A stretch of DNA of 64,000 nt from Chitinophagales bacterium (GCA_046329515.1 JAXLUM010000002.1:1039113-1103112), one strand, 5' to 3'. Shown: positions 13,147 to 29,591, numbered from the stretch's first letter. Notes: a model not told the origin generated them from the letters alone. Made by a program: numbers and translations.

Positions 13147-13159
13147 GCACGCGGCACCC

Positions 13160-14818
13160 ATGCGTTTCACTGTACCCGAGAAATATAAGCTGCCGGCACT
13201 TTTTATTGCATTCCTTCTGATTTACGGGAGCTACTTCTGCTATTTTGGTATTCATGGGTTACTTCCCGGTCAAATCGATGTGTGGTATAACCTGGGAGTG
13301 TTACGCGAATATGCCAACCACATCAACCATCTGTTTTTTAATACCCCGGTTGGTATGGCCAATTATCCTGAAGGGCACATTTACCTGAATGGAGAGCCCT
13401 CCTTTTTAAGCGGCATGTTGTTTTGGGTGCTGTCTTTACTAATGAACGACCTGTGGGCTTATCTCGCTATGTGCGCTTTATTCTTTACGCTTAACAGTTT
13501 CTTTCTCTCGTTGTATTTAAGGCGTTTGTTGAATAGCCATTTATCAATAACTTTTATAAGCGGCTTAGCTTTTAGTTTAAGCGCGTTTAACCTGGGCCTG
13601 CTCGATAATTTTGTCTACGGCATTTTCTTCCCTTTTTTCGGGGCTTTGTTGTTACTGGAAAAATGGTGCACCGACAGAAAAACGGCTCAACTGCTGATAG
13701 CAGTGCTATTGCTCAATCTTGAAATCTACTTTTCGGTTTATAATTTTTTTATGGGCTATTTAGTGCTGGCGGTGTGGCTGGTGGTTTATTTCCCTCGCGA
13801 GCGTAAAACATTTGCTGTGCTGGCGCTGTCATTTATTTCGCTGCCGCTTATTTTTCCCTATGTATATCTTTTCATTCTTCATCCAAGTATCCTCCCGGAA
13901 TACCGTGATTTTTTTACCCCCCAAATAATCGCCGGTTTTAGCTTTAAGGGAGCGGACCTTCTGCGCTCTTTTCAAAGCAACCCCATCTATGGTGGCATGG
14001 TAAACGGTGGTGATCGATTACAGAACTACTGGCACATGGGCAACATAGGCCTTGTTTCATTTGCATTTGCTTTAGCAGGCTGGGCACTTGCCGATAAAAA
14101 ATTAAAGTGGTTAACCGGGTCTCTTATAATAACGGGTATGCTGTTTTGTATCGGGCCCTATTGGGGCAGTAGCCAGGTAAAAGCTCCCTTTTATTATTTG
14201 CACCAATGGTTACCCTTGCTGGCAGGCTTTAAAATGATATTCAAGTTTTATTACCTGGTGTTGCTTTGCCTGGTGATATGCCTTACGGTTTTCGTAAACC
14301 GCGTGGTAAAATTGATGCACCATAAATTCAGGGTACCTGTATCGTTGCTATGCGCAATAGTGTTTTTATCAGAGAACCTGCCTCTTAATTTTTCGGAATA
14401 CGTATTACCCTACAGCCAGCTTCAGCTAAATAAAGCGTTAAGAGAAAATGAAAGCGGAAGCATATTGATTTTGCCCTCTTTTGCTCCCGTAAGTAGTAAT
14501 ACCGAGTGTTTTGTTAAAGGCAGAGGCTATGAGTACCGCTATTACTACCTGGCATATCACTCGCACATTAACCTTTTAAATGGTTCTAGTTCCTTTGTGC
14601 CCGCCTCCCGAAAAACTGTAGATAGCCTTCTTTATCAATTACCTATGAATGAATCCCTTTTCATCCTTCGTAAACAATTCGGATTAACGGCAATTGTATT
14701 CGATAAAAGCAGCACCTTAAGTTGCAGCCCCTACTCTCTTGAGGAATTAAAAACCTTGCTTAACACAACCTATGAAGACAGCGCTTTTGCGTTATTTGAT
14801 TTAACGGCTCAACCGTAA
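13160..14818 (+). CDS. Large polytopic membrane protein with C-terminal soluble domain (YfhO/GT-C-like architecture)
   Basis: Many TM helices plus a soluble C-terminus. The ATG at 13160 avoids the 47-nt overlap that the track start at 13100 creates. Confidence 0.4.
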   Translation: MRFTVPEKYKLPALFIAFLLIYGSYFCYFGIHGLLPGQIDVWYNLGVLREYANHINHLFFNTPVGMANYPEGHIYLNGEPSFLSGMLFWVLSLLMNDLWAYLAMCALFFTLNSFFLSLYLRRLLNSHLSITFISGLAFSLSAFNLGLLDNFVYGIFFPFFGALLLLEKWCTDRKTAQLLIAVLLLNLEIYFSVYNFFMGYLVLAVWLVVYFPRERKTFAVLALSFISLPLIFPYVYLFILHPSILPEYRDFFTPQIIAGFSFKGADLLRSFQSNPIYGGMVNGGDRLQNYWHMGNIGLVSFAFALAGWALADKKLKWLTGSLIITGMLFCIGPYWGSSQVKAPFYYLHQWLPLLAGFKMIFKFYYLVLLCLVICLTVFVNRVVKLMHHKFRVPVSLLCAIVFLSENLPLNFSEYVLPYSQLQLNKALRENESGSILILPSFAPVSSNTECFVKGRGYEYRYYYLAYHSHINLLNGSSSFVPASRKTVDSLLYQLPMNESLFILRKQFGLTAIVFDKSSTLSCSPYSLEELKTLLNTTYEDSAFALFDLTAQP

Positions 14819-14865: not shown

Positions 14866-16467
14866 ATGAATATCACTTTTGCTGCTATAGGATCTGAGCA
14901 GTTGGCTATCAGCTTGCTTTCCGGTATCGCTAAACGCGAAGGCCATGCAGTAAGCCTCGTGTATACTCCTTCACTTTTTCATGACCGCTGGAACCTGGAA
15001 GTCCCTCTTCTGAATCGCTTTTTTGATGAAACAGACGAGGTAATTCAACAAATAGTTAAGTCTGAGCCTGATGTTCTGGCCTTTTCTGTTCTAACGGCCA
15101 CATATCAATGGGCCTTGCACATTGCCACCGAGGTAAAAAAGAAAAGGCCGCGCGTTAAAACCATTTTCGGTGGAGTGCATATCTCGGCAGTTCCCGACAG
15201 GGTAATAAAAAAAGAAGTAGTGGACTACCTTGTTGTTGGCGAGGGCGAAGAAGCATTTCCGGCAATATTAAGCGCCATACAGAATAAGAGTTTCACCGAT
15301 GCCATAGCCAACACATGGTTTAAAGCCGAGGATGGCCGGATTATTAAAGGCCCCCAAAAAGGGTTTTACCAGGAGCTGGACACCCTGCCGGCCTTTGACA
15401 AGATACTTTGGGAAAATGACATTAAGGTTACGGATAAGTATATGACGATGGCATCGCGCGGCTGCCCGTACCGTTGTTCGTTTTGCTTTAATAATTTTTT
15501 TGCCCGCCTGCCCGAAGAAAAGTCCGGCAAGTATGTTCGGTTCAGAAGCCCCGACCATATGCTGGCGGAGTTAAGTTTTGCCAAAGAAAGATATGGCAAC
15601 ATACGCCTGATAGATTTTCAGGATGATGTTTTTACAGCGGATAAAAAGTGGTTAAAAGAGTTTTTACCACGCTATAAAAATGAAATAGACATACCATTTC
15701 AGTGCCTTACGCACCCTAAATACCTGGATGAAGAAATTGCCGCCCTGCTGAGTGATGCAGGTTGCAAGTGGATACAGATGGGAGTGCAGAGCATGGACGA
15801 AGACTTTAAGAAAAACAACCTGCAACGTTTTGAACGCAGCGACCAGATTGCTGAAGCCTGCCGCATTATGGCTAAGTACGGCATTAAAGCCAAACTGGAC
15901 CATATGTTCGGCCTGCCCGAGGAGCCGGTAAGCGCACAGGAAAAAGCGCTTGCGCTTTATAAGCAGTATGTGCCCGAACGCATACAAACCTTTTGGACCT
16001 GTTACCTGCCCGGCACCGATTTATTGAAAGAAGGTCTGGCTAAAGGAGTAGTTACTCCGGAGGCTGCCGAGCGTTTATATGAGGGTATAGACTTTTTCTT
16101 TTACCGTAACGAAGACAACATCAAAAATCCGGAGCTGGTTAAAACCTACAAGCGTTACGAGTTTATTTTTAAAATATTGCCTATCGTGCCGGGCTTTATT
16201 GGTCAGCGCCTGCGCCCGGAAAATATTAAATGGATCCCTCTGTTTGTTATGGGGCCGGTAGCCTATACCGCCGATGTTATTACGGGCTTTATGTTCGGCA
16301 ATCCGGATTTTGCCACCTACGCACGCCATTATATGCTTCATATCAGGCGGCACATTGCAGGTTGGTTTACCTCTACCAAATCGGACGCTACTAAAAACGT
16401 TCAGAAAAAAGTTAAGCTGCCGGTGTTTATTCCTAAACGCAATATGCAGTTGAATAAAACATTTTAG
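14866..16467 (+). CDS. B12-binding (class B) radical SAM enzyme
   Basis: CPYRCSFC at nt 15463-15486. The N-terminal region (DVLAFSVLTATY ... IFGGVHISA) resembles a cobalamin-binding Rossmann domain. Confidence 0.8.
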   Translation: MNITFAAIGSEQLAISLLSGIAKREGHAVSLVYTPSLFHDRWNLEVPLLNRFFDETDEVIQQIVKSEPDVLAFSVLTATYQWALHIATEVKKKRPRVKTIFGGVHISAVPDRVIKKEVVDYLVVGEGEEAFPAILSAIQNKSFTDAIANTWFKAEDGRIIKGPQKGFYQELDTLPAFDKILWENDIKVTDKYMTMASRGCPYRCSFCFNNFFARLPEEKSGKYVRFRSPDHMLAELSFAKERYGNIRLIDFQDDVFTADKKWLKEFLPRYKNEIDIPFQCLTHPKYLDEEIAALLSDAGCKWIQMGVQSMDEDFKKNNLQRFERSDQIAEACRIMAKYGIKAKLDHMFGLPEEPVSAQEKALALYKQYVPERIQTFWTCYLPGTDLLKEGLAKGVVTPEAAERLYEGIDFFFYRNEDNIKNPELVKTYKRYEFIFKILPIVPGFIGQRLRPENIKWIPLFVMGPVAYTADVITGFMFGNPDFATYARHYMLHIRRHIAGWFTSTKSDATKNVQKKVKLPVFIPKRNMQLNKTF

Positions 16468-17339
16468 GCCTGCCCGAAAAGGCGTAACAGCTTTTGTTTA
16501 AATCCCTCCGGCTCAGGTTCCAGCTGAAGGTCTTTCATGCTTATCTGGCCGAAGGAATAATCCCACTCCTGCACCGGTTGCATATTTACAGGTAACTTAC
16601 CATCGTTGTTTTTCATCAGGTAGTCCAGTTCAATCTGAAAGCCCTGTATTTTTTTCCGGTTTTCATTCCAAAAATAAACCATCATAGGGGCACCTGCCGA
16701 AGTTAACGCACAGGAGGTCGCAATGCGGGGCTCGGTAGAATGATTTTCGCGTGAGCAATGAACTGCCCGGTGGTCATACAACAATGCATCGCCGGCATTC
16801 AGCAACAATTCGGTGCACTCTTTCCAGAAATATTCACGCAAGTCCACGGTTTGATCCGGAATGTTAGGCCCGCGGAAAATATTACGAATGTTGTGGCTGC
16901 CTTTTAAAACCTGCAAAGGTCCGTTTTCCTTAGTAAGCTTAACAAGCGGTATCCATAAATTAAACGAGCGGAATTCGTCTTCGTTTACAATGCCATAATC
17001 AATATGCGGTTGAGAAGCCCCTTTGCCCAAAGGCGGTTTAATTACAAACGAGCCCCCGAAAATCTGGTAGTTAGCGAACACCTCGCTGCAGGGGGGGGTA
17101 TATACCTCTATGATCTTGGCAATCGTGCGCACTTTATAGTCCTCATCGCGGGTATGCCACACCGAATTAATAATATGCTCCGCATGAAACTCGGGCTGAT
17201 TGTTGCGGTTATATTCAAGTAACTCAGCCACGCGTTCAGGCGAAAGAAATTTTTTCAATACCAGATAGCCATCGTCCAGCAACTGTTTTTCCAGTCGCTT
17301 GTCCTTCATTATTGGCGGAAACTGTTTTTTAACCTTCAT
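16464..17339 (-). CDS. PhyH-family Fe(II)/2-oxoglutarate dioxygenase (paralog A)
   Basis: PHIDYG (HxD) ... NGPLQVLKGSH ... AVHCS ... PRIA. N-terminal DDGYLVLKKFL motif. Confidence 0.8.
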   Translation of the reverse strand: MKVKKQFPPIMKDKRLEKQLLDDGYLVLKKFLSPERVAELLEYNRNNQPEFHAEHIINSVWHTRDEDYKVRTIAKIIEVYTPPCSEVFANYQIFGGSFVIKPPLGKGASQPHIDYGIVNEDEFRSFNLWIPLVKLTKENGPLQVLKGSHNIRNIFRGPNIPDQTVDLREYFWKECTELLLNAGDALLYDHRAVHCSRENHSTEPRIATSCALTSAGAPMMVYFWNENRKKIQGFQIELDYLMKNNDGKLPVNMQPVQEWDYSFGQISMKDLQLEPEPEGFKQKLLRLFGQA

Positions 17340-18360
17340 GAACCTTACTTGTCAGTTTTCTAAAATAGCCGGCTACTGATTGCAAAAAGCCCTTGCCGGG
17401 TGTGTAGTGTTGCACAATAGTATTCATACCATCTTTTGACAGCATTTCGGGTAAGTCGTTTTCCGGAAGCCCCACTTCCTTAACAAACTGCATAAACTGT
17501 TCTTCGGTTACTACCAAGGGCGTCAACTCCACTTTTCGCGCAGTTTTACCGGGGGGCCGGCCTACCTTTTCGCTAACAAAATCTTCAAATTCCAAGAACA
17601 CATCATCTGCCATTTCAATCATTTCAAACTCTTTGCCTGTATCTGCAGGATCCTTGTAAGGCATTTCAACCTTGGCTGTGTCTGGAAAAAAGCTGGCTGC
17701 TATTGCAACCCGGTTGCGGGCAGTTGTATTTAAAAGCGAGTTATGAAACACGCGTGAATCAAAAATTAAAAGGTCGCCTGCCTTCAAAAGTAAAGGCTTC
17801 ATATACTTATAAACCAAAGGATAGATGTCGCTAAAAGGTAGCTTATTGTATAGGTTTCGGTATGGCGGTATAAGATAGTGCGACTTTGGCAGCACACACA
17901 TAGGACCGTTTTCTATGTTCAAATTCTCTAAGGGCGACCAAATGCTGATAGGCGAAAACAGATTTTCATCCGTTAATGCCATGTCCTGGTGAATGAATAA
18001 AGCACTTTTGGGGCCGGGCGCCTTTACAATAAAGTTGTAACAACTAACCTTAAAGTTTGTAAGAAATTGTAACAGAAGTGGCTCTATTACCTGCCTTATA
18101 TCCGCATGAATTTTTTTGCGGTATTCCGTATTTGCCGAGTAGATACTCACAAACAAACCACCATCCTGCTGTTCAATTTTATGCGTTTGGGCATAAATTT
18201 TTTTTAAGGCGTTAACACGGTCGGCATCAAAAAAATTTTCGAGAATAACGTATCCATTCTCTTTTAAACCCCTGCGGATGTTTTCATCAGTTAAATGAAT
18301 ATACTCTGCCGGCCGCCAGGCTGTAGAAGCAAAAGGTGCTATAGGAGCCATGTTGCTCAT
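17329..18360 (-). CDS. PhyH-family Fe(II)/2-oxoglutarate dioxygenase (paralog B)
   Basis: FIHQDMAL (HxD), NGPMCVLPKSH, VFHNS, NRVA. Confidence 0.8.
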   Translation of the reverse strand: MSNMAPIAPFASTAWRPAEYIHLTDENIRRGLKENGYVILENFFDADRVNALKKIYAQTHKIEQQDGGLFVSIYSANTEYRKKIHADIRQVIEPLLLQFLTNFKVSCYNFIVKAPGPKSALFIHQDMALTDENLFSPISIWSPLENLNIENGPMCVLPKSHYLIPPYRNLYNKLPFSDIYPLVYKYMKPLLLKAGDLLIFDSRVFHNSLLNTTARNRVAIAASFFPDTAKVEMPYKDPADTGKEFEMIEMADDVFLEFEDFVSEKVGRPPGKTARKVELTPLVVTEEQFMQFVKEVGLPENDLPEMLSKDGMNTIVQHYTPGKGFLQSVAGYFRKLTSKVHEG

Positions 18361-19253
18361 AACGAAAACATTTCTTTTACCCTATTACTGAAGTTCCGCC
18401 ATTGGGAAACTTCAAATAAAGCGGGCAGCATTTCTTCGGTTAATTGCGGATCAGGCTGGGCATGCGTGCCCGCATATTGTGCAAAGGATGGAGGCTGCAT
18501 AAACTCGCTCTTGAAATCATCATACAACATAAAAAAAGACGGAGGCACTTTGTAAGCGTCTACCTTTACCACCTTACCGTTCTCCTTACCGAAATAAAGC
18601 ATAAAATCAGCGTCCTTATGGCTGAGGTTGGTCATAACACAAACGCGGATAGAATTTGTGTTGTTTGGAGGAGAATAATGAGCAAGGGCAGAATCGAAAA
18701 CCAGCGCCTCGCCGGCGCTTACATTTTGAGGTTCCATATATTTACGTATAGCCCGCTGCACGTTATCAAAAGCTGCATTAATGCCAGCTCCGCGAATGTG
18801 ATTTAGTTTAAGATGCGAACCCTTAATTGCATGAATGGTGCCATTCTCAGCGAAACAATCCATTAAAGGCAGCCAAAAAGTATAGGTTCTGAATTGCTTC
18901 TCATCTGTAAAGCTCCAATCCTGGTGCACGTACAGTTCCGATTGCGGCCCCAACCCCTTAATCTGATAGGTAAAGGACGACTGCTGCACATCTTTGAAGT
19001 GTTTCGCAAAGTAAGGCTTCAGCAGTTCGCCTATTTGCGTATTCATTTCATTCCGGAAGTTACTGTCAGGGTTATGGAGGCAGGTATATAAGATATCATA
19101 TGGGATATCCGTTCGCGGGGTAACCAGTTGATGATAACGCCCCAACAACTTTTCAATACCATCCTCATCCAAAAAGCGGAACTTTACAATGCCGTCTTTG
19201 TTCAGCATTTTTTGGTACTGTTCGTTTAGGAGGATATCTCTATTCATTTTCAA
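18357..19253 (-). CDS. PhyH-family Fe(II)/2-oxoglutarate dioxygenase (paralog C)
   Basis: YVHQDWSF, NGTIHAIKGSH, LAHYSPPN. ATGA overlap with paralog B. Confidence 0.8.
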   Translation of the reverse strand: MKMNRDILLNEQYQKMLNKDGIVKFRFLDEDGIEKLLGRYHQLVTPRTDIPYDILYTCLHNPDSNFRNEMNTQIGELLKPYFAKHFKDVQQSSFTYQIKGLGPQSELYVHQDWSFTDEKQFRTYTFWLPLMDCFAENGTIHAIKGSHLKLNHIRGAGINAAFDNVQRAIRKYMEPQNVSAGEALVFDSALAHYSPPNNTNSIRVCVMTNLSHKDADFMLYFGKENGKVVKVDAYKVPPSFFMLYDDFKSEFMQPPSFAQYAGTHAQPDPQLTEEMLPALFEVSQWRNFSNRVKEMFSL

Positions 19254-20100
19254 TCAGCTTACGGTAGGCATCAACAAATTCCACAGGCTCATATTCCTTC
19301 TTAAAGGCATTGTTCACTTTGCGGTTAAGGCTGCCAAAAGCAGGCCGTTGCTCGCGCTCGGCATTAAAATCATTATACAGATACCAAAAGTTTTCAGGCA
19401 CGGAATAAACTTCAATTTCTTCTACCCCGTTTTGTTTATCGAAATACCCAAGTTCAATAGGCGCTTCCTTATTAACTACAGAAACTGCTAACGACATGCG
19501 CGGCATACCCGAGTAGTTTTTACCCGAAAAATGTATGGTGCCGGGATCGAAGGCAAGCGCCTCTCCCTGTTTAACGGGGTACGTGTCCGACATTTCCCGT
19601 ATGTAATCCTGTACTTTACCAAACTGGTAATCCATAGTATGCGTACGGAACCCCCTGAATATGCGCTGGCTGCCTTTAAGGGCACGAATAGCGCCATTAT
19701 GCAGGGTGCTTTCCATCATGGGTATCCAAAAGGTGCAGGCTGCATAACGGCTTTCATCCACCACTGTAAGGTCCTGGTGGATGGTTACCGCAGAATCGTT
19801 ACTTATTCCTTTTATCTGGGCAATAATGGCAAGCACTTTGTAATCTGCGAAAATGTTTTCAAGCTTCGGCTGAATAAGCGGATAGAAGGTGTCGAAAATC
19901 CTTTGACGGTATTTTATATCGCCGCCAAAAATAGAGAAGTAGTAGCCGGGGGCGTTAGGTTCGTTCCAATGCGGGTGTAGCGAAATAAAAAGTTCGCGTA
20001 GGGTATCAATAAAGGCGGCATCGGAAAAAAACACCTTCGCTATACCTTCTTTATCGAAATCTCTTTGTAATTCTGCACTCCTGAATAACGGCGCTCTCAT
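19240..20100 (-). CDS. PhyH-family Fe(II)/2-oxoglutarate dioxygenase (paralog D)
   Basis: TIHQDLTV, NGAIRALKGSQ, TIHFSGKN, PRMS. Confidence 0.75.
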   Translation of the reverse strand: MRAPLFRSAELQRDFDKEGIAKVFFSDAAFIDTLRELFISLHPHWNEPNAPGYYFSIFGGDIKYRQRIFDTFYPLIQPKLENIFADYKVLAIIAQIKGISNDSAVTIHQDLTVVDESRYAACTFWIPMMESTLHNGAIRALKGSQRIFRGFRTHTMDYQFGKVQDYIREMSDTYPVKQGEALAFDPGTIHFSGKNYSGMPRMSLAVSVVNKEAPIELGYFDKQNGVEEIEVYSVPENFWYLYNDFNAEREQRPAFGSLNRKVNNAFKKEYEPVEFVDAYRKLIENE

Positions 20101-20136
20101 AATACAATATTGCAGGCAGCCACTGAAGAAATAAGC

Positions 20137-20907
20137 ATGTTAACCATTACTCCATCTGCTGCTGTAAAGGTAACCAAAAATGATTTGCTGAACGGGCCTG
20201 TAGTAATACGAAGTTTTTTCGGGCCGGATGAAGTGCAGGCCATACTGGAGGTTATTAAAAGCAATTATGATAACGGCGTCAATAATTTCGTGCCTTACCG
20301 TTTTCCGAATATTGACTGGAACCGGCGGGCTGACTTTAGTGCCGAAACGGAAAAATTCAACCACCTGTTTAGCGCAGTATTGTTGCAGCCGTTTCGGGAA
20401 AAACTGAAGAGCCATCTGGCCGACCTTGCCATTGAGCCTGTAGTAAATGACGAAGAATTAGTGTTTAACCAGTTAACGGTGCGTATTCTGCAACCCGGGC
20501 AAATGGACATTAACCAGCATTGCGAAAACCAAACCGTTAGTTATTGTAAAAGGTTTTTCGGTTTGCTTGACAAGCAAATGGAAATTTGGGACCAGCGGAG
20601 CCTGTTACTGATGTTGCAAAAACCCGAAACCGGTGGCGATGTAGTTATTTATAAGCAGAAGTGGACAGGCGAAACGGATGCCGAAGGGCAGCGCGATTAC
20701 CTGATTAATTATGATAAGGAGCACGGGCTACCAAACGATAATGTGTCACAAATCATTAGCCTTAATCCGGGCGACCTATTAACATTTGAGGCCGGTAATA
20801 CCTGGCATAAAGTTTCAGAAGCCTATGGTGCAGTACCGCGCATAACAGTGGGTGGTTTTATGGGGCTTGCTAAAAACAGCGCCGATAAATATTTATACTT
20901 TTCCTGA
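20137..20907 (+). CDS. 2OG-Fe(II) oxygenase superfamily protein (P4H-like fold candidate)
   Basis: NQHCEN (HxE) ... GGDVVIY ... NTWHKVSE ... PRITVGGF spacing resembles the double-stranded beta-helix facial triad plus Arg. The ATG at 20137 is preferred over the TTG at 20110. Confidence 0.5.
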   Translation: MLTITPSAAVKVTKNDLLNGPVVIRSFFGPDEVQAILEVIKSNYDNGVNNFVPYRFPNIDWNRRADFSAETEKFNHLFSAVLLQPFREKLKSHLADLAIEPVVNDEELVFNQLTVRILQPGQMDINQHCENQTVSYCKRFFGLLDKQMEIWDQRSLLLMLQKPETGGDVVIYKQKWTGETDAEGQRDYLINYDKEHGLPNDNVSQIISLNPGDLLTFEAGNTWHKVSEAYGAVPRITVGGFMGLAKNSADKYLYFS

Positions 20908-20912
20908 GGCTG

Positions 20913-22208
20913 TTATTCCACTGAAGTAATGGTCCAGTTAAGGTTGGGCCTGATAACAGCCGGTATAGTTTCTGTATAATGGCTGATAAACTCAAAGTTG
21001 GGGTGCTTACGAAACTCCGGGTTTAAGCCGAGATTGAAAGAGACAATTCGAAAATATTCCGCCACTACTTCCATGGTGTTTTGCAGCACTATTACGTGTA
21101 AAGAATAAACGCCTCGATTAAGCAAATTTGCAGGCACCACCGTAGATAAGCGATAACGCCCCTGGGCAACAGGGCTTTCTATGCCATCTAACCTGAACAA
21201 CAGACAATCGGTAAGCACATTTACCATCGTAGAGTTCTGGATATTGAGTACAAAATCAAGTTTTGCATCGCTGGAAAACTTAGTATAGTCCAACGAAATT
21301 TCTATGGCCTCTTCCAGGTAAATTTCCTCGCCTTTCTTTTTGCCAACAGCTTTCACTTCCACGCCATTCAACTCAAAAATGCCTTCTATTCTGCGGGGAC
21401 TGTTTTGTTTTCTGCCGGCATCGGCATTCTCCTTTTGTTCTTTCGGTGTCCTTGCTTCAGGTTCATCTAAGTGATAGACCTTCCTGTAATATTGTTCCAA
21501 CACATCGGCCACGTTGCCTTCAGCTACAATTGCGCCTTCCTCTATCCATATCACGCGGTCGCAAATAGCTTTTATACCTTCCAGGTTATGGCTTACTAAA
21601 ATTACTCCCCGGCCATCGGAGGAAAGCCTTCGTATGGCCTCCGAACTTTTCAAACTAAACTCTGCATCCCCAACCGAAAAAATTTCATCCAGCAGCAAAA
21701 TGTCTGTGCGCAAAACAGACATCGTAGAAAAGGCTAGGCGCGTATACATGCCACTGCTGTAATATTTCACCGGCACATCTATAAAATCCGCAATGCCACT
21801 GAATGAAACAATTTCATCCATGCAGCTTTGCGCATCCGGCTTAGCGATGCCCAATATCTGTGCCGTTAAAAAAACATTATCACGGCCGGTTAAGTCAGGG
21901 CTAAAGCCAGCGCCGATTTCCAGCAAGCTGCCCAGGGTACCCGTAATAGAAATTTTACCCTCGGATGGTTTGCTTACTCCGCTAATCATTTTCAGCAAGG
22001 TTGATTTACCCGCACCGTTGCTGCCGATTATTCCCAGCACCTCTCCCTTTTTAAGGGAGAAGCTTACATCCTTTACAGCCAGAAACTTACCCTTACCGGC
22101 CACTGCCACAGCAGCAGGGTTAACCGGCTCTGTATCCAGGTGGTACCACTTGGATACATGCTCAAGCTGTAAAACAGTTTGGCCGCTTTTATTTTTAAAG
22201 CTTTCCAT
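20913..22208 (-). CDS. wzt: Polysaccharide ABC exporter ATP-binding protein (Wzt/TagH-like) with C-terminal extension
   Basis: Walker A GSNGAGKST, signature YSSGMYTRLAF, Walker B ILLLDE. A non-NBD C-terminal domain of about 170 aa follows. The ATG at 22208 (MESFKNK) is preferred and overlaps the methyltransferase stop by 14 nt. Confidence 0.85.
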   Translation of the reverse strand: MESFKNKSGQTVLQLEHVSKWYHLDTEPVNPAAVAVAGKGKFLAVKDVSFSLKKGEVLGIIGSNGAGKSTLLKMISGVSKPSEGKISITGTLGSLLEIGAGFSPDLTGRDNVFLTAQILGIAKPDAQSCMDEIVSFSGIADFIDVPVKYYSSGMYTRLAFSTMSVLRTDILLLDEIFSVGDAEFSLKSSEAIRRLSSDGRGVILVSHNLEGIKAICDRVIWIEEGAIVAEGNVADVLEQYYRKVYHLDEPEARTPKEQKENADAGRKQNSPRRIEGIFELNGVEVKAVGKKKGEEIYLEEAIEISLDYTKFSSDAKLDFVLNIQNSTMVNVLTDCLLFRLDGIESPVAQGRYRLSTVVPANLLNRGVYSLHVIVLQNTMEVVAEYFRIVSFNLGLNPEFRKHPNFEFISHYTETIPAVIRPNLNWTITSVE

Positions 22209-23139
22209 AGTCCAGTTCCTGTTGCTGCTTTTTGTGTACCTGCATCCAATAAAGGTTTTGCAGAAAATATTTATCGGTACCGTATAGCAAATCGTAAACG
22301 GGCTTGTAGCATTTAATTTCAAAAAAGTCTACCGGAAAAATATACTCCTCCCAATTCTCAATTTTGGCAATGCCTGTAAGCTCCTGAAAATCGTTACTGA
22401 CGGTAAGGTTCTCAAACTCCTCCAGTTTCAGGTCAATGGTTTTTACAAACATAATGGCAAAACCCTGTACCCGCAGGGCATTTAAAACAGTGTTTAACTC
22501 TGCAACATTGTAACGGTAAGCCTCATTAATCCGGCCTATTTCATAATCAATCTTTGCCTGATGCTCGGGGTAAAAAGCCAGCTTGCGGAAAAGGTCCTTT
22601 ATATAAAGTGTGCCACCGGGTTTTAGCACTTCCCATACCGATTGTATGGCCTTTGCATGATCATGTGAGTGGCCAAAAGATTCGAGAAAATATACTACAT
22701 CAAACACCTCTTTGCCAAAATGTGAAGGCAGTTCATGGTAGTCCTGCTTACTTACTTTTACTTTATCGGCTATCCGCGCCGATTCAATTTTTTTGTTCGC
22801 TGCATTGCACTGTACTTCGGAAACGGTTACTCCTTCAACCTGCACTCCATACTTCGTTGCAAAATATATAGCCGGACCCGCAACCCCACAGCCGGCGTCA
22901 CAAACTTTCATGCCTTCAGCAAGCCCCATACTCACGGCTTCGTAATCCAACAGTTTGGTTACATCAGTGGTACGGTATGCCTGAATTATTTCACCATACA
23001 CCTGCACAAACTTATCGTTGTAGGTATCATAAAACTTGCCCACCTGTTGGGGCTTTACAGTTTGCGATACAGCAGCTACCTGTTCTTCTGCTGAAGAGGG
23101 GTGCAAAAAAAACTTGCGGATGAGCGACAACAAACCCAT
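22195..23139 (-). CDS. Class I SAM-dependent methyltransferase
   Basis: Motif I VCDAGCGVAGPAIYFA and post-I/II spacing. N-terminal amphipathic segment MGLLSLIRKFFL. Confidence 0.8.
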   Translation of the reverse strand: MGLLSLIRKFFLHPSSAEEQVAAVSQTVKPQQVGKFYDTYNDKFVQVYGEIIQAYRTTDVTKLLDYEAVSMGLAEGMKVCDAGCGVAGPAIYFATKYGVQVEGVTVSEVQCNAANKKIESARIADKVKVSKQDYHELPSHFGKEVFDVVYFLESFGHSHDHAKAIQSVWEVLKPGGTLYIKDLFRKLAFYPEHQAKIDYEIGRINEAYRYNVAELNTVLNALRVQGFAIMFVKTIDLKLEEFENLTVSNDFQELTGIAKIENWEEYIFPVDFFEIKCYKPVYDLLYGTDKYFLQNLYWMQVHKKQQQELDYGKL

Positions 23140-23148
23140 GGCGGCAAA

Positions 23149-24060
23149 TTACAGACCTATTTTTTCAATCCATCTTTTCAGCAAAGATTTTTGCGGTTGC
23201 GGCTCTGCAAGCTTAATAACCGGCGGTTTATTGGCGTTTTGCTGTTGTTGGTATAGGGTTTCAAATTGCTGCTGGTTTAAAGGCTCGCCTAAGGGGCCAA
23301 TATCGCGGAACTTTTTTAAGCCTTGCGGGCCTTTCAATATGTCATGCTTAAAGAAAAAGTCCACACTGTTTTCATACTCCTCTATTATACCGTTAGTCAA
23401 GTAATAGTAACGCATCTCCGCCTTCTCGGGTATAATACCAAACACAACCGCCAAGCGCGGCTCTTCGGTTTCGTTAACTGCTGAGGCATGTAGCAGGCGA
23501 TGGTCGTATATCAGAGCCTCACCGGCCTTCATGGCCACGGTAGTGTGATAGTTCCAGGTATGGGCGTTTACTTTATAAAAAGGATCGGGAACATTTACGC
23601 CCCTGTAACTTTTAAGCAGTTTGTGGCTTTGCGGCAGCACTGCCAGTGCACCGTTTTTTTCATTGGTATCCACCAGCGGTACCCATATATTAAAGGAGCG
23701 GTAATAATCTTCGTCAACAATATTCCAGTCCTGGTGAGGATAAAGCACTCCTCTTTTGCCTTTATACTTTACGATATACGAACCACCAAGGGGGCGGCAG
23801 TTTAAAAACGTTTGCGACAAGGCCCGGCCAAAGGTTTTTAATATGATGTCATTCAGTTTTTTTTTAAAGTCGTAATTATCGGAATGGGCCGTAGCATACA
23901 GGCCTTCCTTGTTCTGAGGATGGTTTTCGTAGAAAATATCCACCAGCGTTTTTACTTCCTCCGTGTTAAGAAATGGGACAACTACATAACCCTGTTGTTC
24001 CAAAAACTTGTCCTGCTCAATGTTCTGCAATAATTGCATAGGCTTATATGCCAACGGCAT
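23149..24060 (-). CDS. PhyH-family Fe(II)/2-oxoglutarate dioxygenase (paralog E)
   Basis: YPHQDWNI, NGALAVLPQSH, LLHASAVN, PRLA. Confidence 0.8.
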   Translation of the reverse strand: MPLAYKPMQLLQNIEQDKFLEQQGYVVVPFLNTEEVKTLVDIFYENHPQNKEGLYATAHSDNYDFKKKLNDIILKTFGRALSQTFLNCRPLGGSYIVKYKGKRGVLYPHQDWNIVDEDYYRSFNIWVPLVDTNEKNGALAVLPQSHKLLKSYRGVNVPDPFYKVNAHTWNYHTTVAMKAGEALIYDHRLLHASAVNETEEPRLAVVFGIIPEKAEMRYYYLTNGIIEEYENSVDFFFKHDILKGPQGLKKFRDIGPLGEPLNQQQFETLYQQQQNANKPPVIKLAEPQPQKSLLKRWIEKIGL

Positions 24061-25864
24061 CTAAAATTTTTCTGAACAAAGATTTTTTCTCCGGGGTCAA
24101 CGTCTTCTCCGGCTTTGGCTTAGGAGTTTCGGCTTTAGGCACGGGCTTCAGGTAACCTGCTTTCTGTTTCATTTGTTCAACTAAGCCCCCCAACTCCTCT
24201 TTAGTATAAACGGGCGCGGTATATGTTTTAGTACCTATTGAGGTTCCCATCTTAGGGCGCGCATAAATATCCTGCATAAAATTCTCGAAGCTGATAAGGA
24301 AGTTATCTTCCATTTTTATCATCTCCACTTCATTCTGCATTTCAGGCGTTTTGTAATGAAACACCATAGGCGGCTCTACGCTCATAATACCGCTGGTAAT
24401 AGCAATGCGTATTTTATCGGTTTTGTTGGGCGGCGAGTAATGCACCAGGCTTTGATTAAGCACCACCGCTTCTCCGGCTTTTACATTCATTGGCACGCAA
24501 TGGCCAATCATTAACTGCTCGTTTCCTTCAAAAAACATGGGCAGGGTGGGGCAGCGTATGGCTTTTACAATACCATACTGCGAACCCGGCAATACATACA
24601 GCGTTCCGTTTTGCTCGTCTGTATCAACGAGAGGCACCCATATATTAAGCGCTACATATTTATCCTCGTCCACAATAGTCCAATCCTGATGCACCGGCAA
24701 CTCTGAATACGCATCCGGTTGTTTGAACAGAAAGGCAGACCCGAAAGCGCGATAGTTTTGAAACATTTCTTCAAAATGCCCTTTGAATATTCCGGTGATA
24801 CTATCGCTGCAGGATTTTTTGTATTTGTAATCAGAAGAGTAACTGCTGGATTGAAAGCCGGCAGCTGAAAGGCCCGGATGTTTTTCCCAAAATAGTTTTG
24901 TCAGTTCTTCAATCTCCTGCGGTGTAAGGAACGGCACTTTTACAAAGCCCTGTTTATCGAACAAGTCCTGCAAGGCGGCGTCTTTAAAAAGTGCTTTAGG
25001 GTTTTCAATTTTTTTTGGCGGGGGACCGTACAGCTGCACTAACCATGCAGGGGTCAGCTTGGGGAAGTTATAATCCACCAGCCCTAGACTTTTGCCGATT
25101 TTGGGCCTGTCAAAAATATTCTCGCCAAACTGCTGAAAGTCCGTCATAAAGGAGTCGTCCTCTTCAAACACTTCCACTTTATTACCGAAATCCCTGTTCC
25201 AATAGCAAATGCGGAACTCCGAATCTTTATGCGTGAAATAGATATTAGTAACAATGCGAACGCCGCCCGAGAGGTTCGGCGGTGAATAATGGATAATACT
25301 CTGGTCAAAAATTACCGCCTGGCCCGCCTTTAGGTACAGCGGCTGCATGTAATCCAGTATTTCCTGTTGCACATCGTCGTACAAAGCAGGTATAGTGCTG
25401 CCTCTATAGGTAGGCGTAATACGGTGCGAGCCCGGTATTAAATACAATACGCCGTTAGTGTCGGTAAGGTCAATCAAAGGGCACCAGATATTAATGCCGG
25501 TAAAGCGCGTTTCATCCACCAACGTCATATCCTGATGGGTTTGCATGATAGAATCCTCGCCGGGCGACTTTACGATAAATGCGCCGAACATTAATTTGGT
25601 ATCTATCAGTTGCGTACTTAACCATGGGTCGGCAATGCGCTTTATCTCGTCATTAACGGTTTCGCGATAATGCTTATCCGAAGAAAAAGTGCTGGGGAAA
25701 AATCCTTTTTCATCTTTTGGATGCAGCCGGTGGTAAAGCTCATTTAGTTCCTTTACCTGTGCAGCATTATAAAAATCAACCACCACATAACCGTTTTTTT
25801 CAAACTGCTGCTGCATGGCCTCGTCGGCAAACACCCTTTTCATTTTATCAGGGAAAGAAAACAT
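24044..25864 (-). CDS. Tandem di-domain PhyH-family dioxygenase (paralog F1-F2)
   Basis: Two complete sets: QTHQDMTL/IIHYSPPN and PVHQDWTI/LVHYSPPN. Each follows its own (Q/D)KxGYVVV N-terminal motif. Confidence 0.8.
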   Translation of the reverse strand: MFSFPDKMKRVFADEAMQQQFEKNGYVVVDFYNAAQVKELNELYHRLHPKDEKGFFPSTFSSDKHYRETVNDEIKRIADPWLSTQLIDTKLMFGAFIVKSPGEDSIMQTHQDMTLVDETRFTGINIWCPLIDLTDTNGVLYLIPGSHRITPTYRGSTIPALYDDVQQEILDYMQPLYLKAGQAVIFDQSIIHYSPPNLSGGVRIVTNIYFTHKDSEFRICYWNRDFGNKVEVFEEDDSFMTDFQQFGENIFDRPKIGKSLGLVDYNFPKLTPAWLVQLYGPPPKKIENPKALFKDAALQDLFDKQGFVKVPFLTPQEIEELTKLFWEKHPGLSAAGFQSSSYSSDYKYKKSCSDSITGIFKGHFEEMFQNYRAFGSAFLFKQPDAYSELPVHQDWTIVDEDKYVALNIWVPLVDTDEQNGTLYVLPGSQYGIVKAIRCPTLPMFFEGNEQLMIGHCVPMNVKAGEAVVLNQSLVHYSPPNKTDKIRIAITSGIMSVEPPMVFHYKTPEMQNEVEMIKMEDNFLISFENFMQDIYARPKMGTSIGTKTYTAPVYTKEELGGLVEQMKQKAGYLKPVPKAETPKPKPEKTLTPEKKSLFRKILDAVGI

Positions 25865-25873
25865 AGCTGCGGG

Positions 25874-27838
25874 TTATGGATTATCAGAGGTTACGCGGTG
25901 TTTTATTTCGCGCAGTATATTAAGCGGAGTATACTTCTGAAAAAAGCTGCGGCCGTCTACGGTCGGGCCTTGTTGCACAACAGGGTCCTGTTGCACCAAC
26001 ACCTGTTCTTCAGGCTCCTCCAACATTGGTCGTTCGGCAGGCTGTTCTTCCACAACAGTAACCTCTTCCTGTATTATCTCGGGCGTGGGTTCCTGTTTTT
26101 GCGAACCGTCCATATTGTAATTAAAGAGCTTCGCCAAATGCTCGCACATTTCAATATTAAAGGTATTGCCGGCTTCCTTAATTTTTGCCAGCAGTTCGTC
26201 AGCGCTTATATACTGCACGCGGTTGTCAACCACCTCTAAAAGGTTTAAATCTTCCGGCAGTTTACCGCTGTTATACATTTCGGATAGGCGAGCGTTGTTG
26301 TAATGCGTAAAAAAGAAATCGTCTACTTCGTATTTGTTCAGCTTCTTACAATCGCTGCCGGGCACCAAATAATAATGCCGCAACGGCGCATCCTTCTGGG
26401 TAACCCCAAACCCCACGGCTAAGCGTACGCCGTCTGAAACATTAGGAGGCGAAGCGTGCACCGTACGGTTATCGAACACCAATGCTTGCCCCGGCTTCAT
26501 GGGTATTAGTTTCAGGTAAGGGAAAATAGAAAACACATGCGTATCGAGCGGGGTTTTAAACTGGGGCGCCGGTGAACAGCGGTGGTGATTGAAAAATTTA
26601 TGAGAGCCTACAATCACGCCCATTTCGCCGTTATACATATCGGTATCAACCAGTGCAGTCCAAATGGTGGCTGAGTTATAACCTTCATCTTCCTCGGTAA
26701 AACTCCAATCCTGGTGTGGCGGAACCACGCCAATGGGGTTCTTTTCTTTTACCACATAACTGCTGGTAAAAATTTTATAATCCGTGAAATACTTATCTGC
26801 CGGGCCGCTGATTACTGTTTTGATTTTATCCATTACTCCCATTACAAAATCGGGCTTCCTGTTATCCAGGCTAACGTGAAACCCATAATCGGGTATATGG
26901 TCGTTGTTTAGCGTATTGTAATAATCCTTCAGCTCTTTTACTTCCATTTCGTTCAGCATATCCAGCAAAACATAACCGTCGCGCTCGTATTGCTGTTGTA
27001 GTGCCGAGTCTTTAAATAAAGGCTTCATAATTTCACTTTTATATCGTTGCAAAAACAGGTTGAAGTGTTGTGCGCTTAAAGAGGTAAAGTCTTCCTTTAG
27101 TTTACGCGCAGGTTGTACAAAGGTAGGGCGTTCGCCATGGTTATCGTACTTCAGAAAAAAATCATCTTCCACTTCGTAACAATCAACATCTCCGGCTTCA
27201 TCTAAATGATAAAAAAAGAGTTGCGCCTGCTGCGGCACTAAGCCATAGGTAACTGCAATACGGTTATTGGCGGTACTGTTAAGATGCGAGGCGTGAACAA
27301 GCGCCTGATTAAACACAAATGCTTCGCCGGATTTCATCCGGAGGGTTTTCATTTGCTTCCGTATGTGCGGTTCAATATCCTTGATAACAACCGGCAAAGA
27401 AGGAGCGCGCAGGATAGGCGTTAAACGATGGCTGCCATCCAGCACCATTAGCGCTCCTTTATTTTCATCCACATCCTGTAAGGGCACCCAAATAGTGCAC
27501 GAGACGAATCGAGATTCGTCAACAATTGTCCAGTCCTGATGCACAGGCATAAAACCGCCCTGTCCACCGGGTTTGGTTAAAAAACTGGCTCCTAAAAATT
27601 TATGCGGCGTCAATAGCTTTCCGGCTTCAGGTGCAAACACCTGCTTTACCTCATTAAAAAGCTGTTGTTTTAAGGCAATGTCTTTAAAAAAAGTGGTGGA
27701 ATGAAAATATGGCGATTGGCTCTCGAAACCCGCGTATACGGCACGCAGCTTCTCTACCTCCTCTTCGGAAAGAAGCGGAACAATAACATAACCACGCGAA
27801 GCTAATTGCAGGTTAAGGGCCTCGTCCTTAAAAATCAT
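25874..27838 (-). CDS. Tandem di-domain PhyH-family dioxygenase (paralog G1-G2) with acidic Pro/Gln-rich tail
   Basis: PVHQDWTI/LVHASHLN and PPHQDWSF/TVHASPPN. C-terminal low-complexity segment EPTPEIIQEEVTVVEEQPAERPMLEEPEEQ. Confidence 0.8.
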   Translation of the reverse strand: MIFKDEALNLQLASRGYVIVPLLSEEEVEKLRAVYAGFESQSPYFHSTTFFKDIALKQQLFNEVKQVFAPEAGKLLTPHKFLGASFLTKPGGQGGFMPVHQDWTIVDESRFVSCTIWVPLQDVDENKGALMVLDGSHRLTPILRAPSLPVVIKDIEPHIRKQMKTLRMKSGEAFVFNQALVHASHLNSTANNRIAVTYGLVPQQAQLFFYHLDEAGDVDCYEVEDDFFLKYDNHGERPTFVQPARKLKEDFTSLSAQHFNLFLQRYKSEIMKPLFKDSALQQQYERDGYVLLDMLNEMEVKELKDYYNTLNNDHIPDYGFHVSLDNRKPDFVMGVMDKIKTVISGPADKYFTDYKIFTSSYVVKEKNPIGVVPPHQDWSFTEEDEGYNSATIWTALVDTDMYNGEMGVIVGSHKFFNHHRCSPAPQFKTPLDTHVFSIFPYLKLIPMKPGQALVFDNRTVHASPPNVSDGVRLAVGFGVTQKDAPLRHYYLVPGSDCKKLNKYEVDDFFFTHYNNARLSEMYNSGKLPEDLNLLEVVDNRVQYISADELLAKIKEAGNTFNIEMCEHLAKLFNYNMDGSQKQEPTPEIIQEEVTVVEEQPAERPMLEEPEEQVLVQQDPVVQQGPTVDGRSFFQKYTPLNILREIKHRVTSDNP

Positions 27839-27849
27839 ACACCCTTATT

Positions 27850-28767
27850 TTATGCAGAAATTAAACCAAGTATCCTTTTCAAAAAACCTTTCTCTTCATC
27901 AAACCTCGGCGCTTTTAATCCGGCTTCAAATTGCTGCACTGTAAGCGGATGCTGCTGATAAGGAATAGTGTTGACAGTTTTAGTGCCCACAGCCTTCATC
28001 CAGGGATTAAACTGCATGTAAAATTCGTGATCTACCTCCCACACTTTTATTTCAGTAGGCTGAGACGGATCTAAGTGATAGTGCACGGAAGGCACCTCGC
28101 CAGGAATTAAAATCAACTGTATAGCCAAGCGTAAATCCGGGGTGCGATTGGGACGGGTGTAGTGCACGATACTGTCATCCAGTATTACTGCGTTGCCCGC
28201 TTTGGTATCAATAGGCACCATATATTTACCAATCAACTCCTGCTTAATGTTATCCAACTCCCAGGGTATCATGGGCCCACGGAACTCGCCAAAACGCTTA
28301 TGACTGCCGGGTATTACTTCCAGTGTGCCGTTCTCGCGAGTGCTGTTTACCAAGGGGCACCAAATTGAAACGGAAGTATAGCGGCGCTCCTCCACAAAGG
28401 CCCAGTTCTGGTGTATGGGAACTTCGCCGGCATCGGTCTTTTTGCGGATGTAGTTTGCGATGATAGGTTTATAGTCGGCAAGGTAGTGTTTAACCTGTTC
28501 GGCAAACTCCTCCGTAATGATATCGAATACCTTCTTCTTGTATTCTGGGTTCTTATCAATAAACGTAAAGTCGTAAGTAATATCCGGCACATCCAGCGAG
28601 CTGATATCTTCCGGCTTTATCTGGCCACCGCTTTCGGGTAATGTTTCGAAGAACATTTTTTGCAGGCGCTGCACTTTATCAGCAACGATAAACGGCACCT
28701 GCACATAACCGTCTTTATCAAATTTTTTCTGGAGTTCAGCGGAGTTAAAAACCTTTCTCATACACAC
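27850..28767 (-). CDS. PhyH-family dioxygenase-like protein with H-x-N in place of H-x-D (paralog H)
   Basis: PIHQNWAF: the codons at 28405-28413 read CAC CAG AAC on the minus strand. NGTLEVIPGSH, IVHYTRPN and LRLA are retained. Confidence 0.7.
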   Translation of the reverse strand: MCMRKVFNSAELQKKFDKDGYVQVPFIVADKVQRLQKMFFETLPESGGQIKPEDISSLDVPDITYDFTFIDKNPEYKKKVFDIITEEFAEQVKHYLADYKPIIANYIRKKTDAGEVPIHQNWAFVEERRYTSVSIWCPLVNSTRENGTLEVIPGSHKRFGEFRGPMIPWELDNIKQELIGKYMVPIDTKAGNAVILDDSIVHYTRPNRTPDLRLAIQLILIPGEVPSVHYHLDPSQPTEIKVWEVDHEFYMQFNPWMKAVGTKTVNTIPYQQHPLTVQQFEAGLKAPRFDEEKGFLKRILGLISA

Positions 28768-28772
28768 ACATT

Positions 28773-29591
28773 TTAAATGTAATCGGCAATCTCATCTTCA
28801 ACTCTTCTAAAATACCACAAACCCGCGACAAACAAAAACAGCACAGGCAGCGCCGAGTAGAGATATTGAAGCGAGGGGCCCTGCCCGCCCACCAGCGCAA
28901 ACCTATAACCTTCTACCACAAATGCCAAGGGGTTGAAATACATAACATATGCAAGATTTGGAGGCAAAACGGTGCTTGGATAAAAAACAGGGGTTAACCA
29001 GATGGCAAAGTTGATGATGTAGGGAACAAAATGCTGAAAATCGCGGTAGCGGTAAGTAAGTGCGCTTATCCAGATACCTGCCGTTAATCCGCACAAAATA
29101 TGAAGCGCTAAAAACATGGGGAAATAAAAAATACTGATGCCGGGGTGCAAACGATAAAAGAACATAGCGCCTACAATAAGCACAAAGGAAAGCAGGAAGT
29201 CAACCCCTGCGGACAACACCTTGGCTAAAGGCAGAATGAGCTTAGGGAAGTATATTTTTTTCAGGATACTTTGCGATTCGATTAGGGAGTTACCGGCGCC
29301 AAAAGCCAGGTTGGTAAAGTAAGTCCAGCCAATCATGCCGGTTAAAGCGAAAATAGGATAGGGCAACGGGCGGGTATCTACACTAATAAGCCTGCCGAAA
29401 AAGAAAGTGAATATGATAACGGAAGGAAGGGGTTGCAGCAATAACCAGAACACGCCAAACAGGGTTTGGGCATATTTTATTTTGAGGTCGCGTTTTGCAA
29501 AGGTGATTACCAGATTTTTATAGCGAAAAACCTTCCTGAAATACTCTCGCGCGCCATCTCTTTCTTTGGTTATTACATGCGTATTTTCCAA
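28773..29591 (-). CDS. wzm: ABC-2 type polysaccharide exporter permease (Wzm-like)
   Basis: 272 aa with six TM helices. N-terminal RDLKIKYAQTLFGVFW motif typical of ABC-2/Wzm permeases. Confidence 0.8.
   Translation of the reverse strand: MENTHVITKERDGAREYFRKVFRYKNLVITFAKRDLKIKYAQTLFGVFWLLLQPLPSVIIFTFFFGRLISVDTRPLPYPIFALTGMIGWTYFTNLAFGAGNSLIESQSILKKIYFPKLILPLAKVLSAGVDFLLSFVLIVGAMFFYRLHPGISIFYFPMFLALHILCGLTAGIWISALTYRYRDFQHFVPYIINFAIWLTPVFYPSTVLPPNLAYVMYFNPLAFVVEGYRFALVGGQGPSLQYLYSALPVLFLFVAGLWYFRRVEDEIADYI

Follow-up and report, generated by a model that had tools for sequence, protein, structure and literature searches.

Attachment of bacterial proteins to the membrane by a terminal amphipathic helix is a known device, typified by MinD and FtsA. 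The targeting sequence of MinD is KGFLKRLFGG in Escherichia coli (PMC5471200) and KGMMAKIKSFFG in Bacillus subtilis (PMC13537761). FtsA at its C-terminus and MreB at its N-terminus carry helices of the same in-plane class, and the MreB targeting sequence is a transplantable tag, as cited in PMC8155659. In Wzm/Wzt-dependent glycan assembly, a C-terminal region of the E. coli O9a O-antigen terminator WbdD holds a soluble modifying enzyme at the membrane, and LpxK (through its N-terminal helix), PimA and LpxB work peripherally on lipid-linked substrates and need a basic amphipathic helix for activity (PMC6286764). Here we analyze a stretch of 64,000 nucleotides from a Chitinophagales bacterium (GCA_046329515.1 JAXLUM010000002.1:1039113-1103112), which we refer to as the window. 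It contains an operon for a Wzm/Wzt-type exporter, a methyltransferase and eight PhyH-family dioxygenases, named A to H. Seven of the PhyH proteins and the methyltransferase carry short terminal peptides (tails) that probably serve as membrane anchors. New here are the enzyme set that carries the device and a second, undescribed tail motif, type 2. Our search of the literature on PhyH in Wzm/Wzt loci and on amphipathic anchors of bacterial 2-oxoglutarate oxygenases found no description of such tails; PhyH genes were mentioned just in passing, in lipopolysaccharide cassettes of Xanthomonas.

A sequence-only reading of this DNA had reported that at least six of the eight PhyH proteins end in a basic amphipathic peptide, and a fixed rule picks out seven of them (A, B, C, E, F, G and H). 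The rule takes the best 11-mer of the last 16 residues and asks for a helical hydrophobic moment of at least 0.55 (Fauchere-Pliska scale), a net charge of at least +2 and intermediate hydrophobicity. Only 1 of 43 other open reading frames (ORFs) of at least 150 amino acids in the window passes it (Fisher p = 5e-7). Moments of the tails range from 0.55 to 0.76 with charges of +2 to +3, compared to 0.52-0.55 and +3 computed for MinD targeting sequences. When each peptide was compared to shuffled versions of itself, p<0.05 was reached by six tails and by the N-terminus of the methyltransferase. Eisenberg-scale moments of 30-residue ends were dropped as a discriminator, since they did not set the tails apart (the N-terminus of Wzm, for example, scored higher); charge and hydrophobicity were added to the rule after this failure, together with controls.

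All tails are encoded on the minus strand and lie outside the folded domain, within the last 13-25 residues or, in the methyltransferase, the first 12. Two types can be distinguished, type 1 resembling the MinD membrane-targeting sequence and type 2 consisting of the motif of the G tail. The type 1 tails, read from verified translations, are KGFLKRILGLISA in H (27853-27891), KKSLFRKILDAVGI in the two-domain protein F (24047-24088, behind a Pro/Lys-rich linker at 24089-24154), KSLLKRWIEKIGL in E (23152-23190, behind a Gln/Pro-rich linker at 23191-23250), WRNFSNRVKEMFSL in C (18360-18401), GKGFLQSVAGYFRKLTSKVHEG, a longer form, in B (17332-17397) and GFKQKLLRLFGQA in A (16467-16505). The C tail (moment 0.73, charge +2, shuffle p=0.018) was missing from the earlier list. 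G, also a two-domain protein, ends in the type 2 tail RSFFQKYTPLNILREIKHRVTSDNP (25877-25951), preceded by a disordered linker rich in Glu, Gln, Pro and Val (residues 587-626, 25961-26080), with values of the predicted local distance difference test (pLDDT) below 50. The tails quoted earlier translate as given, but those of B and G had been cut too short, their real ends being ...KLTSKVHEG and ...KHRVTSDNP. The similar segment seen earlier at the start of the methyltransferase is real: the sole ATG upstream of its conserved core lies 9 nt past the stop codon of E and begins the amphipathic peptide MGLLSLIRKFFL (23104-23139).

The remaining PhyH protein, D, ends in the acidic sequence VEFVDAYRKLIENE (19243-19284), which fails the rule and shows no anchor; its net charge is -1 for the best-scoring 11-mer and -2 for the whole 14-mer, with a lipid-binding discriminant of -0.19. 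The stop codon of D overlaps the start of C by 8 nt. Elsewhere D and C are fused into a single protein with a single tail (P0314, ending in NLFSFFKRLIKTK), so the lack of a tail on D can be read as a case of one anchor per polypeptide. A linker rich in Pro, Glu, Lys and Gln had been described ahead of the tails; this holds for A, E, F and G, where Pro and Gln are enriched about 2.5-3 fold, but H lacks a linker of this kind. Linker composition refers to the 26 residues before the last 14, which in G overlap the tail start. The tail-coding DNA does not form a nucleotide repeat, the only direct repeats of the region covering catalytic motifs.

Conservation was followed in sets of 120 orthologues each of H (56-73% identity), G (43-88% identity) and the methyltransferase, and in nine loci (L001-L009), five of them syntenic Chitinophagales loci from a methyltransferase genome scan and four more from contig look-ups (Flavobacteriales and other Bacteroidota). 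Loss of the tail in orthologues had been named beforehand as an outcome that would refute the anchor reading, and we found a terminal anchor in 117 of 120 H and in all 120 G orthologues. The H tails take the form [GN]-hydrophobic-hydrophobic-x-[KR]-[LI]-[KR]-x-hydrophobic-[FL]-[SA] (117/120), and three orthologues (P0017, P0086, P0087) end just ahead of this position and are thus tail-less. The median moment of the 120 H orthologue tails is 0.65 versus 0.37 for 16-mers drawn at random from inside the same proteins, of which just 3% reach 0.65, and 89% of the tails have a net positive charge. Their sequences vary (GFLKRILGLISA, GLFARLKQVFSKAG, NFVEKLKAVFS and also GFFSKIKKLFA) with the pattern kept. 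Similar variation is found at the ends of F orthologues (SFFRRLLSGLGIEG, TLFKKILDAIGV or KKSFFKRLFETIAN), E orthologues (KSIFKKFIDWLAN, KSIFRRILEAVGI and GIWGKLKRLFS) and the B orthologues of loci L004 and L005 (VGFLDKLKRIFSA and VGFLEKLKKIFAA). The type 2 motif, R-[ST]-F-F-[QE]-K-Y-T-P-L-N-I-x-R-E-I-K-K-R-[LV], is present in 115 of 120 G orthologues at a constant spacing to the C-terminus and with its Y, N and E invariant in all 115, and is common to up to four paralogues of one operon; the linker ahead of it differs in length and sequence between orthologues. The other five G orthologues have a type 1 tail (three), a hydrophobic segment (one) or a degenerate type 2 motif (one). Type 1 tails thus keep their basic amphipathic character as their sequence drifts, and type 2 is conserved in sequence too.

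The evidence that most clearly connects the tails to the membrane is their replacement by hydrophobic segments. Among the 120 methyltransferase N-termini, about 87 are short, basic and amphipathic (e.g. MFKKLFSKK, MKRLIDFFKK, MSILAKLKNIF), 23-25 are hydrophobic and transmembrane-like (e.g. MIYLLITIFFIAVSAVTFLMLQQ; the copies of the syntenic loci L004 and L005 are among them), two carry the type 2 motif (P0153 and P0234) and four have neither. On the PhyH side, the relatives P0241, P0257 and P0285 and one in L009 have a C-terminal hydrophobic segment in place of the peptide; in P0257 it terminates an E-like domain. P0241 is a fusion of H and G with three PhyH domains in 984 residues, in which a hydrophobic segment comes immediately after the type 2 motif. 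WelO5-like relatives start with amphipathic peptides in L001 (MFSKIRQLLGIEEKK) and L009 (MLINKIKKILGSRLL). In L009, every soluble enzyme of one operon carries an anchor drawn from a mixture of type 1, type 2 and hydrophobic forms: four PhyH proteins have type 1 tails and one a hydrophobic C-terminus, a fused H+G protein has the type 2 motif with a hydrophobic segment right behind it, the methyltransferase has a hydrophobic N-terminus and the WelO5-like protein an amphipathic one. The hydrophobic segments occupy the same position as the tails in orthologues and resemble single-pass signal-anchor or tail-anchor segments, which are integral rather than peripheral; no such segment occurs in the window.

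In L004 and L005 protein F is split in two, each half with a tail of its own, and P0349 is a fusion of B and A that ends in GLFHKLKSIFNR. Pairs of PhyH domains are joined in some genomes and separate in others, as seen for D and C (P0314), B and A (P0349), the second domain of F and E (P0257), and H and G (P0241). Profile hits include proteins in which as many as three stretches match PhyH, and their length extends to 1259 residues. P0384 (642 residues) is an apparent fusion of a PhyH protein with the C-terminal region of the methyltransferase, judged from its C-terminal sequence alone.

Structure predictions are consistent with tails that are detached from the catalytic fold. In the AlphaFold2 model of H the core has pLDDT above 90 and the tail forms a helix (residues 295-304) at pLDDT 65-68 behind a coil. 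The model of G shows two confident domains, 40 disordered residues (587-626) and then helices at residues 632-635 and 638-650 with pLDDT of about 81. The tails are accordingly predicted to be separate helices behind flexible linkers. The fold of H matches SnoK/SnoN, EctD, EvdO2, AviO1, HygX, PHYHD1 and SyrB2, of which SnoK/SnoN and the orthoester synthases EvdO2, AviO1 and HygX act on sugars. A search for a particular characterised protein with the fold of H gave just generic PhyH-fold matches, with TM scores of about 0.5 and 16-20% identity. The iron motif, as read from the translations, is HQD in B to G and HID in A; H and all 57 of its aligned orthologues have an invariant H119-Q-N121 instead of His-x-Asp, plus a distal H202.

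Compared to the described systems, the type 1 tails come closest to MinD. The H tail has the hexapeptide KGFLKR in common with E. coli MinD, and the consensus of the H orthologues resembles the B. subtilis sequence. The shared features are a terminal position, a length of 10-14 residues, a basic and amphipathic nature with the same hydrophobic spacing, and character that is kept more than sequence; like the MinD sequence, the tails would in principle be transplantable to either end of a protein. They differ in residing on PhyH dioxygenases, a class I methyltransferase and WelO5-like proteins rather than on a ParA-type ATPase, and we see no sign here of a nucleotide-dependent dimerisation switch. 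FtsA and MreB belong to other protein families and serve other cellular processes, and the likeness to them is one of class. The parallel with WbdD that had been drawn earlier is valid for its role, but the best sequence analogue is the MinD targeting sequence and the methyltransferase is no relative of WbdD. The membrane-associating region of WbdD is a C-terminal domain located beyond a coiled coil of about 200 A, and it also recruits the polymerase WbdA, whereas the tails described here consist of 12-25 residues beyond disordered linkers. The possibility that the methyltransferase is a WbdD-type chain terminator was ruled out: such a terminator combines a kinase/methyltransferase catalytic part with a long coiled coil and a membrane-binding domain at its C-terminus, and the methyltransferase has 314 residues, one class I domain, an N-terminal anchor and no WbdD chain among its 36 PDB matches. 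The helices of LpxK, PimA and LpxB are built in beside the active-site face, in contrast to the flexible linkers of 10-40 residues in this operon.

We consider membrane anchoring of the seven PhyH proteins and the methyltransferase to be the likely function of the tails. A common membrane-surface anchor or docking peptide for otherwise soluble tailoring enzymes had been suggested before, and the anchor is supported chiefly by the substitution of hydrophobic segments in orthologous operons. Amphipathic peptides, type 2 motifs and hydrophobic segments appear to be interchangeable, functional equivalents at the same position, and, judging from the methyltransferases and WelO5-like relatives, the peptide is usable from either protein end. 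The fold does not need the tail, because tail-less H orthologues exist. Each tail would form a short terminal helix tethered by a flexible linker and would act as a peripheral anchor, lying in-plane within the inner membrane's cytoplasmic leaflet, with its Phe/Leu/Ile face buried and its Lys and Arg residues at the lipid head groups. Ten PhyH domains and a sugar-type O-methyltransferase could in this way be gathered at the membrane surface, where a lipid-linked glycan would presumably be made and then handed to the Wzm/Wzt exporter. Of this picture, we infer the binding to lipid, the cytoplasmic side and the lipid-linked glycan substrate. One helix alone would probably bind weakly, like that of monomeric MinD, and by analogy stable binding may need oligomers or enzyme-enzyme contacts.

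Several points weigh against the anchor reading. The thresholds of the enrichment rule were picked after the data had been seen, the orthologues are non-independent samples, and the tails of A (p=0.13) and G (p=0.19) are individually non-significant compared to shuffles of their own residues. A lone MinD helix reportedly lacks the strength to bind by itself (PMC8155659). The C-terminal hydrophobic segments of the relatives end in RKK or PRR and their topology is thus ambiguous. Finally, the strict conservation of type 2 exceeds what a plain lipid-binding helix would require: in a manual helical wheel of residues 639-650, its invariant Asn and Glu map to the polar face together with Arg648, for which plain lipid binding offers no explanation.

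These last features would fit an alternative in which the tails dock on another protein, such as Wzm (at its cytoplasmic face), Wzt (at its C-terminal domain) or a scaffold, and a shared motif recruits all enzymes to the exporter without binding lipid. The constant distance of type 2 from the C-terminus, its presence on up to four paralogues per operon, the pLDDT of its helix and an extra domain of about 180 residues in Wzt, which has no assigned function, could all be accommodated by docking. Type 1 sequences, however, drift freely with only the amphipathic pattern kept, and hydrophobic segments stand in for both tail types in orthologues. In P0241 the type 2 motif is directly ahead of a hydrophobic segment and hence at the membrane, and L006 retains the tails though a Wzt gene is absent within 10 kb. 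Docking in place of lipid binding is for these reasons unlikely in our view, and the two are mutually compatible. A tentative and rather doubtful extension would combine them, with type 2 acting as a juxtamembrane recognition motif that has its hydrophobic face in the membrane and its invariant polar Asn-Glu-Arg ladder in contact with a partner shared by the enzymes (for instance Wzm/Wzt or an adjacent enzyme). Such a motif might bring as many as ten dioxygenase domains and the methyltransferase into an ordered row at the membrane that tailors the lipid-linked glycan before export. If true, this row would be part of an uncharacterised pathway conserved across Bacteroidota and beyond.

It is also conceivable that the tail belongs to the enzyme itself, packing on the catalytic domain as a lid or as an element of autoinhibition or dimerisation. 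Some 2-oxoglutarate oxygenases do have C-terminal helices close to the active site, and the pLDDT of the G tail is moderately high. We regard this explanation as very improbable, since the core and the tail are separated by linkers of variable length (the roughly 40 residues of G being predicted as disordered), the H tail is the least confident portion of a confident model, and orthologues without a tail exist. Moreover, the same peptide is found N-terminally on the unrelated methyltransferase fold and on WelO5-like proteins and is replaceable by hydrophobic segments.

The tails might also mark the proteins for degradation or export from their C-terminus, in the manner of a ClpXP-type degron or a secretion signal, as many of them finish in small non-polar residues (..VFA, ..VFS, ..AEA, ..ISA), and MinD itself is described as a ClpXP substrate (PMC7857489). 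A C-terminal degron would account neither for the equivalent peptides at the methyltransferase N-terminus nor for their replacement with hydrophobic segments. The biochemistry of the family also speaks against export, as Fe(II)/2-oxoglutarate enzymes require cytoplasmic cofactors, and we give signals of this kind hardly any credence. A resemblance due to chance, to composition or to functionless inheritance from a duplicated ancestor is scarcely credible, for although the paralogues are clearly duplicated, with DNA repeats that persist over catalytic motifs, and short amphipathic 11-mers are common in proteins, the enrichment stands at 7/8 versus 1/43, the tails are kept in hundreds of orthologues (43-73% identity) with diverging neighbouring linkers, and replacement by other anchor types has occurred repeatedly and independently.

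Membrane anchoring by the tails would predict the workplace of a widespread uncharacterised enzyme set. A location at the membrane surface implies that the substrate is lipid-linked or membrane-embedded and not soluble. Reconstitution of these oxygenases may consequently call for membranes or detergent, for constructs in which the tails are kept or replaced, and for attention to the possibility that the array forms a multi-enzyme assembly. The natural swap of a MinD-like helix, a second motif and hydrophobic segments at one orthologous position also provides a clean comparative data set on the substitution of peripheral and integral anchors. To a cell biologist the anchor itself is a familiar device and would hold little surprise.

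Profile searches gave 3596 matches to this enzyme set at E<=0.001. Synteny of the operon extends over Chitinophagales, Flavobacteriales and other Bacteroidota. The conserved core of the operon consists of Wzm, then five to ten PhyH domains and the methyltransferase, often with Wzt and a WelO5-like gene. Recurrent neighbours are genes for a WecE-like transaminase, KAS III, ACP, GT2, B12-radical SAM, LPG_synthase_TM, UbiA and Cupin_8 proteins. The distant PhyH relatives P0266, P0280, P0318, P0336, P0379 and P0386 have Arg/Leu-rich amphipathic tails, e.g. GLLRRLLRRLSGG and RRVARRVRRLVRR. They probably come from organisms with a high guanine-cytosine content, given their composition rich in Ala, Arg, Gly and Pro, and their tails suggest that the same device is used outside Bacteroidota. 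A PhyH paralogue in L007 (15796-16695) has a Trp-rich end (SIWDWMRKWMFFWINAHP) that looks like a third, interfacial style of anchor.

In the window the operon is tightly packed on the minus strand at 16464-29591, in the order Wzm-like permease, PhyH proteins H, G, F and E, methyltransferase, Wzt-like ATPase and then PhyH proteins D, C, B and A. Inside the operon, between the Wzt-like ATPase and D, the plus strand carries a gene (20110-20907; Pfam E=1e-31) for a WelO5-like 2-oxoglutarate oxygenase that has no terminal peptide. The PhyH genes span 16464-20100 and 23149-28767; an ORF check confirmed the ends given earlier, with A stopping at 16464 and H starting at 28767. All eight proteins match Pfam family PF05721 above the gathering score, with E values from 1e-14 to 9e-42, and F and G have two domains each, resulting in ten PhyH domains in total.

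The first gene of the operon (28773-29591, minus strand) encodes a Wzm-like ABC-2 permease that has weak NCBIfam matches to galactan Wzm and KpsM and orthologues annotated as PF01061. The Wzt-like ATP-binding cassette (ABC) ATPase with its additional C-terminal domain (20913-22208, minus strand) was recognised by Pfam ABC_tran, and among solved structures it is closest to Aquifex O-antigen Wzt (E=5e-50) and TarH/TagH. One operon thus holds both an ABC-2 permease and a Wzt/TagH-type ATPase, as in Wzm/Wzt ABC-transporter-dependent glycan export. A flanking aminotransferase scores above the curated NCBIfam cut-off as a WecE-like dTDP-4-amino-4,6-dideoxy-sugar transaminase. No glycosyltransferase was recognised by Pfam and NCBIfam scans at 11-31 kb of the window, and GT2 genes are present at the orthologous locus L007.

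Three large predicted proteins, at 11494-13146 (550 residues), 13100-14818 (572 residues) and 6129-7856 (575 residues), had no Pfam or NCBIfam match, the first two being very hydrophobic. These could be the missing enzymes of glycan assembly or periplasmic transfer. Genes for a cytochrome bd subunit I-like protein and a c-type cytochrome (7876-9204 and 10460-11536) are flanked by KAS III/AMP-ligase genes and membrane-protein genes and adjoin an LPG_synthase_TM gene. The class I methyltransferase itself is encoded at 22195-23139 on the minus strand. Several sources label it as cyclopropane-fatty-acid-synthase-like, in contrast to its nearest solved relatives, which are the sugar O-methyltransferases RebM (3bus), MitM and a D-glucose O-methyltransferase (6uv6).

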